Below, piece after piece: positions 7,050-21,031 of a DNA stretch of 64,000 nt (position 1 is the stretch's first letter; the number at the start of each line of letters is the position of its first letter). The DNA is taken from contig CAWJSC010000017.1 in the NCBI GenBank assembly GCA_963845425.1, forward strand, positions 123,843 through 187,842. The letters are read 5' to 3'. Source of the DNA: an uncultured Microthrixaceae bacterium (lineage in GTDB: Bacteria; Actinomycetota; Acidimicrobiia; Acidimicrobiales; DATDAH01). The position numbers were made by a program, and so were the translations under genes. The notes below the pieces were generated by a model that worked only from the letters and a program-made list of their open reading frames with translations, was not told the origin of the DNA and made no database searches.

Positions 7050-7493
7050 CTAGTGGGTCGGTGCCGTCTCGGCGTCCATGAGACGTTCTGCCGTGACCCA
7101 GAGCACTTTCACCGCGATACCCGGAACGTCGCTCAGCAGCCGCCGGAACTCGCTGGCATGGAAGGCTCGGACACTGAGATCGTCGTCGGCCACCACCGAC
7201 GCCGTACGCGGACGCTCGCCGATCAGGGCCATCTCGCCGAAGAAGTCCCCCGGGCCGAACTGGGCGACCTCCACGCCGTCCTTCACGCAGGTGGCCCGCC
7301 CGCTCATGACGAGGTAGGCGTCCCTCGAGTGGTCGCCCTGGGTCATCAGCCACTCGCCCTTCGGCACCGTCACCTCGGTGCCGAGAGCGGCGAGCTCGTT
7401 CAGCTCCTTGTCGTTGCACGCGGCGAAGAGGGGCACGGCCCGAAGTCGATCGAGGTACGCCTTCGGCGTCTTCTGGCTCTTCCTGCTCATCAT
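7050..7493 (-). CDS. Stand-alone cyclic-nucleotide-binding (CNB) domain protein
   Basis: 147 aa. Contains LRAVPLFAACNDKELNELA and the phosphate-binding-cassette-like FFGEMALIGERPRTASVVA. No DNA-binding or other output domain. Its stop lies 6 nt upstream of the FAD-subunit start. Confidence 0.85.
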   Translation of the reverse strand: MMSRKSQKTPKAYLDRLRAVPLFAACNDKELNELAALGTEVTVPKGEWLMTQGDHSRDAYLVMSGRATCVKDGVEVAQFGPGDFFGEMALIGERPRTASVVADDDLSVRAFHASEFRRLLSDVPGIAVKVLWVTAERLMDAETAPTH

Positions 7494-7601
7494 CTACCTT
7501 CCGGTTCGAGCGGTTCAGGTGGTCTGCGGCGGGGCACCCCCACGTCGAACTGACCTGCAAAGCGGCTCAGCAGTCTGCCACGCGCCGGCGGTGACCTGGC
7601 G

Positions 7602-8024
7602 CTATCCGGCCTGCCCCCGCGCCCTCCGCAGCGCGCCGGCCAGTCCCGCGAGCAACTGGGCGTTGAGGTCCGGGAACTCACGGAGCAGCGTGCGGAACAT
7701 GCGAACGCCGAGCACGGCCACCTCGAGCTCGGTCTCGGAGGTCACGGTGGCGGCCCTCGGCTCCCCGTCGAGCAGGGCCAGCTCACCGAAGTACTGCCCG
7801 GGACCGAGCGTGTCGGCCAACTCGCCGTTCACCGTGACCCGGGCATGACCATCCAGGATCACATAGAAGGCGTCTCCGGGATCACCCTGGCGGGTCAGCT
7901 CGACCCCGGGTTCGAGGCGAACGGTCTCGACATGACGGGTCACCGTCTTCAACTCGGCTCGGCTGCAGCGCGAGAACAGGTCCACCGCCGCGAGCAGCTC
8001 GGTCAGTTCGCGCTTCGATCGCAC
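7602..8024 (-). CDS. Stand-alone cyclic-nucleotide-binding (CNB) domain protein, second copy
   Basis: 140 aa. Contains LAAVDLFSRCSRAELKTV and YFGELALLDGEPRAATVTS. No output domain. Confidence 0.85.
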   Translation of the reverse strand: MRSKRELTELLAAVDLFSRCSRAELKTVTRHVETVRLEPGVELTRQGDPGDAFYVILDGHARVTVNGELADTLGPGQYFGELALLDGEPRAATVTSETELEVAVLGVRMFRTLLREFPDLNAQLLAGLAGALRRARGQAG

Positions 8025-8065
8025 GGGCGCCGAAGGTAGCCGTTGGGCCCGCGTAGGGTCTGGCC

Positions 8066-18300: not shown

Positions 18301-19161
18301 GCGCTCGGCCGCGTGCTGCACGACCCGGGTCACCTCGTCGAGGGCGGCGGCCACCGCATCGGGCCCGAGCCGGTCGTGCAGCTCGTCGACGCCCTTGTAC
18401 TTGACGAAGGCCACGACGCCGACGCGGTGCTCGGGCTCGACCTCACCGGTCTGCAGGTGGCCGCGCAGGCCGACCGGGATGCAGCGCACCACCGCTTCGA
18501 TCGGAACGGCGCGGCGGGTGCGAGGGCCGACGGGAGCCACCGGCGGCTTGCGCCACTTCAGGATCCAGCCGTCCCCCTTGGCGACGGTGGCCGCGCCCCG
18601 GGGGAGGGCGTCGCGGACGGCGGTGCTGACCACGATCTCCCCGGCGTCGGCCGTGCCCTCCATCTCGATGGTCCCGGTGGCGCCGGGGCCGGTGATGATC
18701 AGCTCCCGGTGGGAGTCGCCCACCAGGTAGGCGTGCATGGTGCCGGTGTGGAGGCCGATCGACATCTTCAGCGGTACCCGCCCGACCGAGGTGGCGATCC
18801 GAGCCGACTCCCGCAGCGCGGCCCGCATCTCCACCGCGGCCCCGCAGGCCTGCACCACGTGTCCGTCGCCGCGGAACAACAGGAGCAGGGCGTCGCCGCC
18901 GAACTTGACGAGGTTCCCGCCGCGCTCGTGGGCGAGCGAGATCATCGACCCGAACACCCGCCGGAGGACCTCGGTCAGCTCCTCGGCGCCGATCCGGCCC
19001 CGGGCGGCCAGCTTCTCGGAGAGGTTGGTGAAGCCGGAGATGTCGACGAAGCACATCGTCGCGTCGAGCTCCCGGTGGAGGGCACCCGGCGTGTCGAGGT
19101 CCCATTCCGCGGCGACAGCCGGCACGTAGCGGATCGCCGCACCACCGGTGTCCTCGCTCAC
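15380..19161 (-). CDS. Tandem class III adenylate/guanylate-cyclase domains + AAA/STAND ATPase + TPR-like repeats (one apparent frameshift near the 3' end)
   Basis: CHD1: FVDISGFT...KFGGDALLLLF. CHD2: ...GVNRGHVFAGEIG...YTVMGDTVNLAARL. P-loop: GEVGAGKSRL. Long helical-repeat C-terminus. After about 15560-15575 the plausible sequence continues in the frame of track ORF 15380..16627 (...GLERIDEGIATARRQELVYDLAMLLSARAAV...LELSG*). Confidence 0.85.
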
Positions 19162-19237
19162 CCGCGACCCGCTCCCGGCACGACCACCATTGTGGCGTGC
19201 CTCCGGGAGGGTGGTGATCGCGGGTGCTCGACCGGGC

Positions 19238-21031
19238 TCACTCGGCTTCGAGCTCGGCGGTGACGAGCGCGGCGAGGCGCCGCAACTCGGCCAGCTGGTC
19301 GTCGTCGAGCAGCCGGGGACGGCGGTCGACGACGCAGAGGGTCCCGGCCCGGGTGCCGTTCGACAGGGTCAGGGGGGCGCCCGCGTAGAAGCGGAAGCGG
19401 GGGCCGGACGCCACGAGGGGGTTGTCGGCGAAACGAGGATCCGCGTAGGCATCAGGGACCTGGAACACGTCGTCGCCGAGGATGGTGTAGGCGCAGACGG
19501 CCATGTCGCGGGGGGTCTCGGCGACCTCGACGCCGTGCCTCGACTTGAACCACTGGCGGTGCTCGTCGACCAGGGTGATCAGGGCGATGGGCACGTCGAA
19601 GGTCGAACTGGCGAGGTCGGTGTAGCGATCGAAGCGGGGCTCGGGGTCGGTGTCGAGCACCTCGAGATCGCGCAGGGCCTGCAGGCGGGCCGACTCGTCG
19701 TGGGGCAGGGGTGCGGTCTGCCACTGGCAGGCCCGACGCAGCAGCCAGGCCCGCAGCTTGGTGCGCACGTAGCCGGCGCTGGCGGGCCACTCCAGCGAGT
19801 CCGTGATGGCCACGTCGTCACCGCTCGTCGGGGGGTGGCCGGTGGCGGTGACCGCGATCAGGCTGATGTCGCCGCCCGGCCGCTTCTCCATGGCGCCGAC
19901 GGCGTGGGCGAACTCGGCCAGCACCTCGCTGTCGTCCTGGTCCTCGAGGACGACGATCGCGGGGTGCTCCCGGCGGGCGATCTCGACGGCCTCGGCGGGG
20001 TCGGTGGTCTCCCAGATCTCGAGGTCCTCCTCCTCCGCCGCTTCCCGCAGGATCTCGGCGATCTCGGGGCTGCGCACGGCGAGCAGGACGCTGCGGGCCA
20101 TGTGCTCGAGCCGCGGGACGGGGATCGGCCGGGCGGTGCCTTGGATGCCGGTGGAGGTACCCCGCAGCTCGATCGTCTCCCCCTCCGCGGCGGCGATGAC
20201 CTCGCCGGCGAAGCCCCGCTCCGAGGCGAAGGCCCTGGATCGGGCGACGACGTCGTCGACGGCCTCGTCGGTACGGGACGGGTCGTGGTGGAAGAGGGCC
20301 ACCTGTTTCACGCCCGCCAGGTCGGCGACCGAGACGACGTACTCCACGGTGCTGTGGCCCCAGCCCACCTTGCCGGGGTACTCGGCGGCGAGGTACTGGG
20401 CGTCGTGGATCAGAAGGTCGGCCCCTTGGAAGAGGCCGGCGTGGTCGAGGTCATGGCGGCTCGCCGCCGGGTCGCCGCCGGTGGCGAGGCGCCGGTCGTG
20501 GGGCTCGTGGTCCGTGGAGTACACGACGGTGGCCCCATCGACCTCGAGGCGGTAGCCGAGGGTGAGCGCGGGGTGGTTCAGATAGCGGCTGGTGACGGTG
20601 ATGTCGTCGATGTCGAAGGTGCACTCGACCAGGTCGTGGTACTGAACGGTCGCCGTGAGCTGTTCGATCGCCACGGGGAAGTAGGCGTACTGCATCTGCC
20701 CGGCGAGGGTCTCGCTGAGCGAACCGGCCAGGCCCCGGGGCCCGTAGATGTGCCACGAACCGCCCGGCTGGAACAGCGGGGCGAAGAACGGCAGGCCCTG
20801 GATGTGGTCCCAGTGGGTGTGGCCGATGAGCAGGTGGCCCTCCATCGGTGCACCGCCACTGCGGGCGACGAGGTCCTCGCCGAGGCCATGGGCGCCGGTG
20901 CCGCAGTCGAGGACCACGATGGTCCCGGCATCGGAGCGGACCTCGACACAGGACGTGTTCCCGCCGAAGCGGAGCGTGGAAGGTCCCGCTTTGGCGATCG
21001 ATCCCCGTGTTCCCCAGAAGGTCACCTGCAT
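19238..21031 (-). CDS. MBL-fold metallo-hydrolase / receiver-like domain / GAF domain protein
   Basis: 597 aa from ATG 21031 (MQVTFWGTRGS...); the upstream part of track ORF 19238..21547 is junk. HTHWDH metal motif. The central segment VLLAVRSPEIAEILR...AIVVLEDQDD resembles a receiver domain. C-terminal GAF-like segment: ESARLQALRDLEVLDTDPEPRFDRYTDLA...LVDEHRQWFKS. Confidence 0.8.
   Translation of the reverse strand: MQVTFWGTRGSIAKAGPSTLRFGGNTSCVEVRSDAGTIVVLDCGTGAHGLGEDLVARSGGAPMEGHLLIGHTHWDHIQGLPFFAPLFQPGGSWHIYGPRGLAGSLSETLAGQMQYAYFPVAIEQLTATVQYHDLVECTFDIDDITVTSRYLNHPALTLGYRLEVDGATVVYSTDHEPHDRRLATGGDPAASRHDLDHAGLFQGADLLIHDAQYLAAEYPGKVGWGHSTVEYVVSVADLAGVKQVALFHHDPSRTDEAVDDVVARSRAFASERGFAGEVIAAAEGETIELRGTSTGIQGTARPIPVPRLEHMARSVLLAVRSPEIAEILREAAEEEDLEIWETTDPAEAVEIARREHPAIVVLEDQDDSEVLAEFAHAVGAMEKRPGGDISLIAVTATGHPPTSGDDVAITDSLEWPASAGYVRTKLRAWLLRRACQWQTAPLPHDESARLQALRDLEVLDTDPEPRFDRYTDLASSTFDVPIALITLVDEHRQWFKSRHGVEVAETPRDMAVCAYTILGDDVFQVPDAYADPRFADNPLVASGPRFRFYAGAPLTLSNGTRAGTLCVVDRRPRLLDDDQLAELRRLAALVTAELEAE

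Follow-up and report, generated by a model that had tools for sequence, protein, structure and literature searches.

Parts of the locus analysed here have counterparts among described systems. In Mycobacterium tuberculosis, the cyclase-like gene Rv2561 is a neighbour of Rv2564 and Rv2565, both of which encode proteins with a cyclic-nucleotide-binding (CNB) domain, and this neighbourhood is conserved (PMC4886424). Full-length soluble adenylyl cyclase (sAC) combines its C1-C2 pair with a predicted STAND/P-loop region (PMC12802110). On the side of signal degradation, Rv1339, CpdA and YhfI have been defined as atypical class-II phosphodiesterases of PF12706, with the motif [T/S]HxHxDH (PMC9293780). 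[quoted passage not shown]

The window, i.e., the whole 64-kb stretch of DNA analysed, comes from an uncultured, Microthrixaceae-like bacterium of the Acidimicrobiales (Acidimicrobiia). Within 14 kb it encodes a cyclase like mammalian sAC, an enzyme that is probably a phosphodiesterase, and four proteins that sense cyclic nucleotides, among them a lipase and a transporter. With moderate confidence, we read this part of the chromosome as a place where housekeeping genes for cyclic-nucleotide signalling, most likely by cAMP, lie together. The genes concerned, with their supporting matches, are the following:

7050..7493, minus strand: CNB1, stand-alone cyclic-nucleotide-binding protein, 147 aa (Pfam cNMP_binding, E 8e-19)
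7602..8024, minus strand: CNB2, stand-alone cyclic-nucleotide-binding protein, 140 aa (Pfam cNMP_binding, E 2e-19)
8066..10306, plus strand: MMPL-family (RND/HAE2) membrane transporter, 746 aa (Pfam MMPL, E 9e-84)
10328..12118, minus strand: CNB-NTE_Ploop-patatin lipid hydrolase, 596 aa (Pfam cNMP_binding 9e-21, NTE_Ploop 1.5e-20, Patatin 3e-33)
12180..13793, minus strand: MFS-CNB transporter, 537 aa (Pfam MFS_1 6e-21, C-terminal cNMP_binding 1e-18)
14036..15376, plus strand: secreted protein of unknown function, ~448 aa in orthologs (tblastn with the L004 ortholog, four frame segments)
15380..19161 (ORF as listed 15373-19161), minus strand: sAC-type cyclase, ~1260 aa (Pfam two Guanylate_cyc stretches 1e-26, AAA_16 2e-14, TPR)
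19238..21031, minus strand: MBL-fold phosphodiesterase domain with pseudo-receiver and Dcsbis-type GAF, a candidate assignment, 597 aa (Pfam Lactamase_B_2 1e-15, GAF 2e-14)
21306..22685, plus strand: WS/DGAT acyltransferase, 459 aa (Pfam WS_DGAT_cat 7e-73, WS_DGAT_C; NCBIfam)

Pfam recovered, each in its place, all the domains that an earlier sequence-only reading had named (cNMP_binding, Patatin, MFS_1, MMPL, Guanylate_cyc, AAA_16, Lactamase_B_2 and GAF), and third-position GC selected the same genes as its list. Two corrections to that list are needed, namely the added gene at 14036-15376(+) and a frame change in the cyclase. Compared with its orthologs, the cyclase shows a 1-nt frame change near 15562-15569, 180 nt ahead of the stop codon, with its last 60 codons out of frame. 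The added gene, convergent with the cyclase and with no Pfam match, is broken in the window copy by three +1 indels (14211, 14273 and 14973) and is kept beside the cyclase in L004-L006 and in ~13 of 80 cyclase loci. The frame changes in both genes may be assembly errors or real decay.

An HMM scan placed all four CNB ORFs of the window inside 6.8 kb; the remaining ~50 kb contained 0. At a rough background rate of 0.27 CNB genes per 100 kb, estimated from 738 kb of unrelated flanks, this clustering has a genome-wide P of ~3e-6, or 0.03 if the background is ten times higher; the CNB density greatly exceeds what chance would give. Pairwise identities among the four domains are 30-40%, which argues against recent tandem duplication. 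The phosphate-binding-cassette signature ascribed earlier to all four was borne out by alignment with E. coli CRP, in which the Gly-Glu and Arg-x-Ala contacts are kept in 4/4 domains; neither these pockets nor the catalytic motifs of the cluster showed any degeneration. The four proteins with these intact pockets would read the signal. CNB1 and CNB2 have no output domain and so would act via protein partners or as nucleotide buffers. The CNB1 stop codon lies 6 nt from the start (7043) of a xanthine-dehydrogenase-like FAD subunit gene, while CNB2 and the MMPL gene are divergent, their start codons being 41 nt apart.

The putative source of the signal has a tandem C1–C2 core of the soluble-adenylyl-cyclase (sAC/ADCY10) type, to which a STAND (AAA_16) NTPase and TPR repeats are joined in one protein. 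Among PDB sequences, human ADCY10 is the closest to this cyclase and aligns with it in the same order through C1 and C2. In a fold search with the AF2 model (pLDDT 85.8), the top 24 matches were all sAC core structures (target TM 0.72-0.77), followed by the STAND-TPR protein 6mfv. Residues D40, K86 and D90 in domain 1 and T360, N367 and R371 in domain 2 are invariant in the family. These class III domains would pair within the chain as a C1/C2 pseudo-heterodimer and share one active site, to which domain 1 (C1-like) would contribute the metal-binding Asp pair and domain 2 (C2-like) the Thr/Asn/Arg set, presumably under the control of the STAND NTPase and TPR sensor region. Domain 2 lacks the canonical substrate-binding Lys, which makes the nucleotide product not predictable; cAMP would be the most likely one. 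The family is large and well conserved, with full-length homologs at 46-91% identity in Acidimicrobiia.

The best-supported output of such a signal would be the MFS-CNB transporter followed by the CNB-NTE-patatin protein. The transporter gene lies 61 nt upstream of the patatin gene on the same strand, and both probably form a two-gene operon with the patatin gene second. For CNB-patatin, the closest solved structure is PlpD (E 4e-30), with the GGGxRG, GTSxG and DGG motifs aligned, and the protein matches the C-terminal half of natural MFS-CNB-patatin fusions end to end (36% identity, E 8e-57); single-chain fusions of this kind were found in at least 15 clusters. In the distant lineage of L033, an ABC exporter-CNB gene, then CNB-patatin, then the cyclase reproduce the triad with another transporter class, and in L167-L169 CNB-patatin comes, overlapping by 4 nt, after a MacB-type ABC operon whose ATPase bears a GAF domain. 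In the neighbourhood, the combination conserved best is CNB–NTE–patatin behind a regulated transporter, which can be of the MFS, ABC-exporter or MacB type. Since this pairing is found again with different classes of transporter and in fused genes, MFS-CNB and CNB-patatin can be regarded as a functional unit, in which nucleotide binding would jointly regulate the transporter in the membrane and the patatin-type lipid hydrolase, both handling a common lipid/acyl substrate.

As for signal termination, the MBL-pseudoreceiver-GAF protein is a plausible agent and a candidate cNMP phosphodiesterase of the atypical class-II type. On the same strand, its gene precedes the cyclase by 76 nt, and in this genome both are probably co-transcribed; the start at 21031 (MQVTFWGTRGS) agrees with the N-termini of ~600-aa homologs. 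The family is large and well conserved in Acidimicrobiia, and its metal-binding motifs are invariant. The middle domain, previously described as receiver-like, did match response-regulator receivers in a family-profile search; it has no acidic pair, and an invariant E363 occupies the phospho-acceptor position. The GAF domain is 48% identical to that of Dcsbis and most likely senses a non-nucleotide, hydrophobic ligand.

A serious competitor to this assignment, to which we give a little less than an even chance, would make the protein a ligand-regulated nuclease of the RNase Z kind, or else a different diesterase, and would regard its place next to the cyclase as incidental. The best sequence match of the MBL domain is RNase Z (E 1e-7 with the single sequence, 1e-10 with the family profile), and among NCBIfam models RNase Z scores 68 bits against 42 for the cNMP-degrading phosphodiesterase model (NF041851, cutoff 400). 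The match to this latter model nevertheless spans all of it (1-253 of 253), while that to the RNase Z models covers no more than their first half, and the segment aligned to what we take to be the flexible arm of RNase Z is ~34 residues shorter. The fold matches comprise RNase Z/ZipD and PhnP, but also YhfI (target TM 0.70-0.74) and Apyc1. The GAF type, which binds neither cAMP nor cGMP, also favours the nuclease, as does the absence of linkage to cNMP genes beyond the closest relatives: 470 kb of flanks around 83 homologs yielded no more than a single separate CNB gene and a single cyclase fragment, and the 77% identical protein of L003 has no cNMP-related neighbours in its 10-kb flanks. Within the clade, in contrast, the gene lies beside the cyclase (window), less than 6 kb from CNB1 (L005) or adjoining genes for a Metallophos and a CNB protein (L002), and distant homologs carry this MBL-REC module joined to CNB-GGDEF.

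Two further genes had been included in the proposed circuit as lipid exporter and lipid-storage enzyme, which our results do not support, and we would leave both outside as neighbours only. The MMPL protein contains no CNB domain, reaches 391 bits with the NCBIfam MmpL3 model (cutoff 1400) and has a homolog near only 1/80 cyclase loci; in L168, an MMPL gene lies ~3 kb from the CNB-patatin homolog. The WS/DGAT gene, divergent from MBL-GAF, is one of three in the window, so that chance would put one next to the island, and those found close to MBL-GAF in L001 are paralogs of only 29-34% identity. It is most likely a neighbour outside the circuit.

The sequence-only reading had proposed a self-contained cNMP circuit, of which the tight gene set with intact domains and motifs, the CNB–cyclase linkage and the transporter/patatin unit stand, but not a conserved island. 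As a whole, the island is not kept in relatives, an outcome that this reading itself had named as a refutation. The locus of the closest cyclase ortholog (L004, 85% identical) is collinear with the window over the cyclase, the unknown gene, MFS-CNB (91%) and CNB1 (82%), and CNB-patatin, MMPL, CNB2 and MBL-GAF are absent from its cluster. L005 holds the cyclase, CNB1 and MBL-GAF (90%) inside 10 kb, with MBL-GAF on the other side of the cluster. CNB1 orthologs in both clusters are 82-85% identical, and no CNB2 ortholog was found in either. These differences suit the possible but rather doubtful view that working cNMP/lipid genes were gathered by rearrangement and shared ancestry into a mosaic without a closed circuit, where the CNB proteins answer a cellular cAMP pool fed by many cyclases and MFS-CNB/CNB-patatin is the sole real unit. 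In line with it, only the window has the segment with CNB-patatin, MMPL and CNB2, a CN_hydrolase-amidohydrolase-luciferase block that abuts the cyclase in L004/L005 lies 18 kb away in the window, and the coordinates imply at least four separate transcription units, some divergent or convergent. Among 80 loci with homologs of the window cyclase (many 40-50% identical and possibly paralogs), 74% have no CNB gene in the available flanks and 21 (26%) carry one.

The distribution of these CNB genes speaks against a mere mosaic, as do the improbable clustering in the window and the L033 triad. They are concentrated within 7.5 kb of the cyclase homologs (29 in 834 kb vs 1 in 218 kb, binomial p = 0.008), and their density depends on distance, falling from 7.1 per 100 kb upstream at 0-2.5 kb to at most 1 per 100 kb at 7.5-10 kb. 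CNB effectors repeatedly lie directly upstream and co-directional, several at 46-232 nt; small CNB proteins 42-44% identical to CNB2 are found upstream of cyclase homologs in L052 and L074, and MFS-CNB homologs near those in L047 and L081. Linkage of the cyclase to CNB effectors beyond chance is thus supported.

An anti-phage or abortive-infection system like Pycsar, CBASS or Avs, in which the STAND-TPR region would sense a phage protein and switch on the cyclase, the nucleotide made would activate CNB-patatin and a membrane effector and so kill the cell, and the MBL enzyme would reset the system, is highly improbable: PADLOC does report PycC, PycTIR and CBASS phospholipase-effector hits in the cyclase, CNB and patatin domains, phage sensors exist among STAND-TPR proteins (PMC13581612) and the MBL domain is weakly similar to the anti-Pycsar nuclease Apyc1, but all PADLOC matches are to single common domains, the CBASS lipase model gives CNB-patatin 26 bits in NCBIfam (cutoff 200), the match to PDB 9iom (E 7e-5) falls far behind that to PlpD, CNB-patatin homologs occupy transporter operons, a 2026 STAND survey nowhere mentions cyclase effectors, the flanks are metabolic with no integrase, restriction-modification or toxin cluster among the neighbours, GC content is uniform, the cyclase and MBL-GAF families are large and well conserved, and the cyclase in particular is unlike patchy defence genes. 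The earlier preference for housekeeping over defence therefore holds. The likeness to Pycsar and CBASS is one of formal scheme, in which a cyclase is paired with a lipase gated by a nucleotide, and the cluster has no CD-NTase. With mammalian sAC/ADCY10, the cyclase has the tandem C1–C2 core in common, fused in the window's protein to a STAND NTPase and TPR repeats. The impression that no locus of such a kind had been described must be tempered, as M. tuberculosis Rv2561/Rv2564/Rv2565 offers a published, partial precedent for the transporter plus CNB-patatin unit. Seen beside these systems, the neighbourhood is neither a new system nor phage defence; it is ordinary second-messenger signalling, packed unusually tightly.

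Since the G+C content of the window is approximately 72%, genes were picked by third-position GC. This recovered the gene list proposed for positions 7050–22685 in the sequence-only reading, and every domain named there was confirmed by strong Pfam scores. The list was not complete, as a plus-strand gene encoding a secreted protein had been overlooked. The genes of the region are given below, with domains as assigned by Pfam.

7050–7493, minus strand: stand-alone cyclic-nucleotide-binding (CNB) protein, CNB1
7602–8024, minus strand: stand-alone CNB protein, CNB2
8066–10306, plus strand: MMPL transporter
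10328–12118, minus strand: CNB-NTE_Ploop-patatin protein (CNB-patatin)
12180–13793, minus strand: MFS transporter with a C-terminal CNB domain (MFS-CNB)
14036–15376, plus strand: secreted-protein gene without Pfam match, convergent with the cyclase gene
15373–19161, minus strand: protein with two Guanylate_cyc domains, AAA_16 and TPR (cyclase)
19238–21031, minus strand: Lactamase_B_2 and GAF protein (MBL-GAF)
21306–22685, plus strand: WS/DGAT

The reported clustering of cNMP-related genes was confirmed. By using an HMM built from the CNB domains, we found four CNB ORFs in the window, all of them within the island. The presence of four CNB genes in 6.8 kb corresponds to a genome-wide P of about 3e-6 at a rough background of 0.27 per 100 kb, a density derived from only 738 kb of flanks, and to P = 0.03 if the background is ten-fold higher. 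Local duplication does not explain this density, because pairwise identity among the four domains is only 30–40%. The sole meaningful family in a repeat search comprised the four phosphate-binding-cassette coding segments (64–71% nucleotide identity), and neither flanking repeats nor mobile-element signatures were found in that search. A promoter and terminator scan of the island yielded nothing exceeding shuffled expectation; operon calls are therefore based solely on spacing and strand. The stop codon of CNB1 is located 6 nt from the start of the FAD-subunit gene of a xanthine-dehydrogenase-like operon (3611–7043, same strand), with which CNB1 may be co-transcribed; this adjacency was not present in L004 or L005, two loci that harbor close orthologs of the cyclase.

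The phosphate-binding-cassette signature that had been noticed in all four CNB domains held on alignment with Escherichia coli CRP, with the Gly-Glu and Arg-x-Ala contacts retained in 4 of 4 domains (the positions of CRP G71/E72, and of R82 and the next Ala). Likewise, cNMP_binding Pfam scores ranged from 67 to 74 bits, compared with a cutoff of 27.5.

Regarding the synthase, an alignment of 20 family members (46–91% identity) revealed invariant residues in both cyclase domains, i.e., D40, K86 and D90 in domain 1, and T360, N367 and R371 in domain 2. Domain 1 carries both metal-binding Asp residues, with T164 and E168 replacing the transition-state Asn and Arg. In domain 2, both Asp residues are absent, and Thr, Asn and Arg occur exactly as in Pseudomonas aeruginosa CyaB and human soluble adenylyl cyclase (sAC, ADCY10), with T360 aligned to the Thr of both proteins. 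The best PDB sequence match was human ADCY10, collinear over C1 (39–190) and C2 (381–422). Moreover, the AlphaFold model (pLDDT 85.8) has an sAC-like fold, its top 24 PDB matches being the sAC core (target TM 0.72–0.77, approximately 470 columns). The next structural match, which covered the C-terminal part, was the STAND-TPR protein 6mfv, and Pfam detected AAA_16 (E 2e-14), TPR_12, and weak NB-ARC and MalT-TPR matches in the C-terminal region. Full-length sAC has similarly been described as C1-C2 followed by a predicted STAND/P-loop region (PMC12802110). Based on the split residue sets, the ADCY10 match and the fold matches of the model, the protein is predicted to be a bacterial sAC-type pseudo-heterodimer with one active site, placed under a STAND-TPR regulatory module. 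At the substrate-Lys position, domain 2 shows no conserved Lys in the 20-member alignment and reads DIDxDGG, so that we infer the product of the cyclase rather than predict it.

Among the residue roles known for sAC, Arg176 is the bicarbonate site. Bicarbonate regulation by analogy with sAC was not supported, given that K86 aligns with sAC K95 and is conserved but the equivalent of Arg176 is Ile. We also observed a 1-nt frame change near 15562–15569 in the cyclase gene, which leaves its last 60 codons out of frame compared to the ortholog proteins P0121 and P0122, while the secreted-protein gene contains three +1 indels at 14211, 14273 and 14973. With four frame disruptions in 1.5 kb, this stretch is either poorly assembled or decaying.

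Conservation of the gene neighborhood, which the sequence-only reading had named as a check on the circuit, held only in part at shallow depth. The L004 locus (cyclase identity of 85%) carries, in this order, the cyclase, the secreted-protein gene, a Metallophos gene, a gene for a 163-aa CNB protein, MFS-CNB (91%), Usp and a CNB1 ortholog (82%); CNB-patatin, MMPL, CNB2 and MBL-GAF are missing from it. In L005 (cyclase identity of 80%), the cyclase is accompanied by the secreted-protein gene, the 163-aa CNB gene, Usp, CNB1, two further genes and MBL-GAF (90%). Among loci retrieved with MBL-GAF, the gene adjoins Metallophos and a CNB gene in L002 (83%), and no cNMP-related neighbors were found within the 10-kb flanks in L003 (77%). 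A fifth locus, L001 (MBL-GAF 91%), is uninformative, since its contig ends 2.4 kb upstream of MBL-GAF; we no longer count it as evidence against linkage, and its available portion agrees with the gene arrangement of L005. A CN_hydrolase-Amidohydro_1-Bac_luciferase block stands immediately before the cyclase in both L004 and L005 and lies approximately 18 kb from it in the window, which indicates that the MBL-GAF and WS/DGAT stretch is an insertion or a rearrangement relative to both loci. The window contains two CN_hydrolase genes (1349–2263 and within the 37167–40519 block), the second being followed by an amidohydrolase and a luciferase-like gene.

The linkage between cyclase and CNB genes was further traced in a deep scan of 80 loci with cyclase homologs of 40–85% identity, where many of the homologs at 40–50% may be paralogs and most metagenome loci are short. 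A CNB ORF was present in 21 of these 80 loci. Upstream of the cyclase, CNB density reached 7.1 per 100 kb within 2.5 kb; downstream, it was 4–5 per 100 kb at 2.5–7.5 kb. It fell to 1 per 100 kb or less at 7.5–10 kb (29 CNB ORFs within 7.5 kb of the cyclase vs. 1 at 7.5–10 kb; binomial p = 0.008). Several CNB ORFs are on the same strand as the cyclase, 46–232 nt upstream, and the partner types comprise stand-alone CNB, CNB-HATPase_c, SulP-STAS-CNB, MFS-CNB, ABC-CNB and CNB-patatin proteins. CNB-HATPase_c (kinase-like) genes and one SulP-STAS-CNB transporter gene are found beside cyclase homologs at L021:3566–5788, L024:325–1815, L037:9696–11450, L068:19935–21320 and L009:3–1562; in L024 and L009, the cyclase homolog follows downstream on the same strand at a distance of 205 and 119 nt, respectively. 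The neighbor of the cyclase that is most consistently kept is the secreted-protein gene, which encodes a protein of approximately 448 aa with a clear signal peptide (L004 copy at 13785–15131) and is convergent with the cyclase in the window, in L004–L006 and in about 13 of the 80 loci.

A pair formed by Metallophos and a 162–163-aa CNB protein occurs beside MBL-GAF (L002:8554–9875) and beside the cyclase cluster (L004:15195–16462), and was not found in the window. This calcineurin-like phosphoesterase/CNB pair may be an Rv0805-like class III phosphodiesterase with its own sensor.

Within the island, MFS-CNB and CNB-patatin are co-directional and separated by a gap of 61 nt. The patatin domain harbors intact motifs (GLVLSGGGARG, GGTSAGS and LVDGGLVDN) that align with those of PlpD (5fqu; E 4e-30), and an NTE_Ploop domain (PF24179; E 1.5e-20, 74 bits vs. 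a cutoff of 27) lies between the CNB and patatin domains. Transporter and CNB-NTE-patatin genes recur together elsewhere. An ABC exporter that ends in a CNB domain precedes CNB-NTE-patatin and then an sAC-type cyclase in L033, all on one strand. In L167–L169, CNB-NTE-patatin overlaps by 4 nt with the terminal gene of a MacB-type ABC operon, the ATPase of which bears a GAF domain. The order there (L167:6583–12208; L168 and L169:6672–12259) is membrane fusion protein, FtsX permease, ABC ATPase with C-terminal GAF, and CNB-NTE-patatin; in L168, the 8-kb vicinity also includes an MMPL gene along with two Usp genes.

Single-chain MFS-CNB-patatin fusions of about 1050 aa form at least 15 protein clusters in other Actinomycetota; a protein search with a concatenated query gave few matches, missed close orthologs and is uninformative on fusion frequency. 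One fusion aligns end to end with the CNB-patatin of the window (36% identity, E 8e-57), and this full alignment of its C-terminal half is evidence that CNB-patatin proteins partner MFS transporters. Its MFS half is of another subfamily, and the alignment with MFS-CNB is confined to the CNB part. We therefore rejected, in its strict form, the notion that the two genes of the window are a literal split of the mycobacterial-type fusion. Rv3728 and Rv3239c are mycobacterial MFS-CNB-esterase proteins. In Mycobacterium tuberculosis, the cyclase-like Rv2561 has been reported to share a conserved neighborhood with the CNB proteins Rv2564 and Rv2565 (PMC4886424), and Rv2565 and Rv3728 are still annotated as hypothetical (PMC10865251). 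As judged from gene order and domain composition, MFS-CNB plus CNB-patatin is the best-supported candidate for a functional unit, a pairing which recurs with non-homologous transporters.

The MBL-GAF family is very large and well conserved in Acidimicrobiia. A search returned 7,269 matches, part of which are probably GAF-only, and the top 120 showed 57–91% identity and a length of approximately 600 aa. An exact-sequence look-up of the window protein gave no record. The MBL domain matches PF12706 (E 1e-15), and its metal-binding motifs are invariant in the family alignment. The consensus SHTHWDH fits [T/S]HxHxDH, with GHTHWDH in the window copy; [T/S]HxHxDH is the motif defined for atypical class-II PDEs, a group of RNase-Z-like ancestry that includes Rv1339, CpdA and YhfI (PMC9293780). 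The NCBIfam model NF041851 ('cyclic nucleotide-degrading phosphodiesterase') is matched by the MBL domain over model positions 1–253 of 253 at 42.4 bits, far below its cutoff of 400; RNase Z models outscore it but span the first half only. RNase Z/ZipD, YhfI, PhnP and Apyc1 were the fold neighbors of the domain.

The family profile of the middle domain matches response-regulator receivers (YycF and PhoP; E ~1e-5), and no Pfam Response_reg match reaching E 0.01 was obtained with the window protein. The acidic pair is replaced (VRSPE) and the phospho-acceptor position is occupied by an invariant Glu (E363), which together define the middle domain as a pseudo-receiver. More distant homologs (approximately 40% identity over MBL and receiver), in which Response_reg scores 48 bits, have an MBL-REC-CNB-GGDEF architecture or, in one case, MBL-REC-CNB-GDPD, and thus associate the MBL-REC module broadly with proteins of nucleotide second-messenger signalling. 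These metagenomic architectures, with CNB-GGDEF (one CNB-GDPD) in place of GAF (L166:8698–11019, L148:7453–9804, L145:318–2816 and L153:580–3285), appear uncharacterised.

The GAF domain is 48% identical to that of Dcsbis (PA2771) over 155 columns, and the NKFDE motif was not seen in residues 440–597 by direct reading or in the family alignment. In Dcsbis, the NKFDE motif is degenerate, neither cAMP nor cGMP was bound by ITC, and the domain contains a large hydrophobic ligand pocket (PMC4937426). Because of this likeness, we rejected the GAF domain as a cNMP sensor and do not count it as one. Concerning genomic linkage, full-length MBL-GAF was present in 0 of the 80 cyclase loci, and the flanks of 83 MBL-GAF homologs (470 kb, mostly short contigs) contained one separate CNB gene and one cyclase fragment. 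The protein is a plausible but unproven candidate for a cNMP phosphodiesterase, and we consider the chances for and against this role to be about equal.

With regard to how these components may operate, the STAND-TPR module, once triggered by some signal, would switch on the cyclase, which would yield cAMP. cAMP would in turn bind MFS-CNB and CNB-patatin at their CNB domains, and a lipid or acyl substrate would have its transport and its hydrolysis switched together. CNB1 and CNB2 might act via partners or as buffers, while the MBL-pseudoreceiver-GAF enzyme, the gene of which precedes that of the cyclase by 76 nt in the same orientation, would degrade the signal under the control of a non-nucleotide ligand.

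A more far-reaching reading, which we regard as unlikely, is that the island constitutes a self-contained cAMP module restricted to lipid-storing Microthrixaceae-like bacteria, with the cyclase and a new ligand-gated MBL-GAF phosphodiesterase gating lipid transport and hydrolysis. Here, the sAC-like STAND cyclase and a co-transcribed MBL-GAF enzyme would set local cAMP, the Dcsbis-type GAF pocket would perhaps sense a hydrophobic or lipid ligand, and lipid uptake or export and hydrolysis would be gated via MFS-CNB, CNB-patatin and possibly MMPL. The Microthrix lineage is known to accumulate lipids in wastewater systems, and a literature search on cAMP signalling in Acidimicrobiia gave no match.

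Neither of the two remaining members of the circuit as first proposed was supported. WS/DGAT genes number three in the 64-kb window alone (21306–22685, 30739–31587 and 50436–52232; the middle one comprises the catalytic domain only), with an alpha/beta hydrolase (29892–30800) and a fatty-acid desaturase (43212–44297) nearby, which makes the region rich in neutral-lipid metabolism genes. The MMPL gene, divergent from CNB2 at a distance of 41 nt, has a counterpart in only 1 of the 80 cyclase loci. Its product scored 391 bits with the MmpL3-type equivalog model (trehalose monomycolate exporter), below the cutoff of 1400, and is best classified by sequence as a generic MMPL/HAE2 transporter.

The remainder of the window is ordinary chromosome. 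It encodes two xanthine-dehydrogenase-family sets, CN hydrolases, amidohydrolases, a solute-binding protein, DUF4012, Memo, a P-type ATPase, BipA, a DEAD-box helicase and the two further WS/DGAT proteins. The window contained no mobile-element or defence genes and no compositional break, and an Rfam scan of its entire length gave zero matches. Among genome records, a Microthrixaceae MAG is nearest; the other matches are Acidimicrobiia or Acidimicrobiales MAGs. The P-type ATPase carries a C-terminal hemerythrin domain and is followed by a bacterial globin (44126–47147), and the DEAD-box helicase has a C-terminal cold-shock domain (57510–59072).

This setting also bears on whether the island could be an anti-phage system of the Pycsar or CBASS type, with which it shares, in formal terms, the combination of a nucleotide cyclase with effectors gated by nucleotides, among them a patatin lipase, and also the CNB, cyclase and patatin folds. 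The PADLOC models for PycC and PycTIR, however, matched the shared cyclase and CNB domains only (e.g., 57 bits over 116 residues of a 374-position model), the CBASS lipase model reached 26 bits compared with a cutoff of 200, and Pycsar models remained far under their family thresholds. No CD-NTase was found among the island proteins in PADLOC, Pfam or NCBIfam, and neither a TIR domain nor a compact cyclase-effector operon is present. Moreover, the island genes are conserved across a bacterial class, are apparently vertically inherited and have metabolic surroundings. We thus consider a defence function highly improbable, which agrees with the earlier preference for housekeeping signalling.

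Under this housekeeping reading, the island provides a compact natural arrangement of an sAC-type STAND cyclase beside its likely receivers, at a time when the functions of the sAC C-terminal region and of the mycobacterial CNB-patatin and CNB-transporter proteins are still unexplained (PMC12802110, PMC10865251). The comparative evidence points to a regulated transporter followed by CNB-NTE-patatin as a functional unit conserved across Actinomycetota, and so offers a testable hypothesis for Rv2564/Rv2565-type genes. MBL-pseudoreceiver-GAF proteins, in turn, represent a very large uncharacterised Acidimicrobiia family of candidate regulated phosphodiesterases. If these links hold, cAMP would be connected to lipid handling in the Microthrix lineage.

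Each part of the island adds a member to an established family (sAC/STAND cyclases, CNB proteins, NTE-patatins, MFS transporters, and MBL phosphodiesterases related to RNase Z, YhfI and Rv1339), and the island therefore does not represent a novel system type. It is unusual in that 14 kb hold a synthase, a candidate hydrolase and four receivers, and in its MBL-pseudoreceiver-GAF architecture, which is uncharacterised; the gene arrangement is specific to the lineage and varies, with a partial mycobacterial precedent.

Similar to sAC, the cyclase comprises two cyclase domains per chain that would form a C1/C2 pseudo-heterodimer, with the Asp pair in C1 and Thr/Asn/Arg in C2, where the Thr is class IIIb-like as in P. 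aeruginosa CyaB. It differs from sAC in its low sequence identity (approximately 20%) and in a C2 domain without the canonical substrate Lys. As in sAC and STAND-type class III cyclases, a P-loop STAND module and helical repeats follow the cyclase domains. The M. tuberculosis Rv0386 group comprises bacterial STAND-type class III cyclases with a LuxR output domain, which the window cyclase lacks.

CNB-patatin shares the CNB-NTE_Ploop-patatin order, an intact oxyanion loop and the Ser-Asp dyad with neuropathy target esterase/PNPLA6, PlpD and RssA; unlike neuropathy target esterase/PNPLA6, it has a single CNB domain, and no membrane anchor was detected. The mycobacterial CNB effectors likewise pair a CNB-NTE-patatin hydrolase with a CNB-bearing transporter near a cyclase-type gene. 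In contrast to the mycobacterial MFS-CNB-esterase fusions, the window encodes the transporter and the lipase in two genes, both products carrying a CNB domain, and the cyclase is sAC-type, unlike Rv2561 (DUF2652).

MBL-GAF has the PF12706 MBL fold of Rv1339, Corynebacterium glutamicum CpdA, Bacillus subtilis YhfI and phage Apyc1, but is nearer to RNase Z in sequence and carries an additional pseudo-receiver and GAF domain. It resembles the GAF-regulated eukaryotic PDEs (PDE2/5/6/10/11) in joining a putative hydrolase to a GAF sensor, although its catalytic domain is of the MBL and not of the HD type. Finally, the island differs from Pycsar and CBASS in having no PycC-type or CD-NTase enzyme and no compact operon of cyclase and effector genes.
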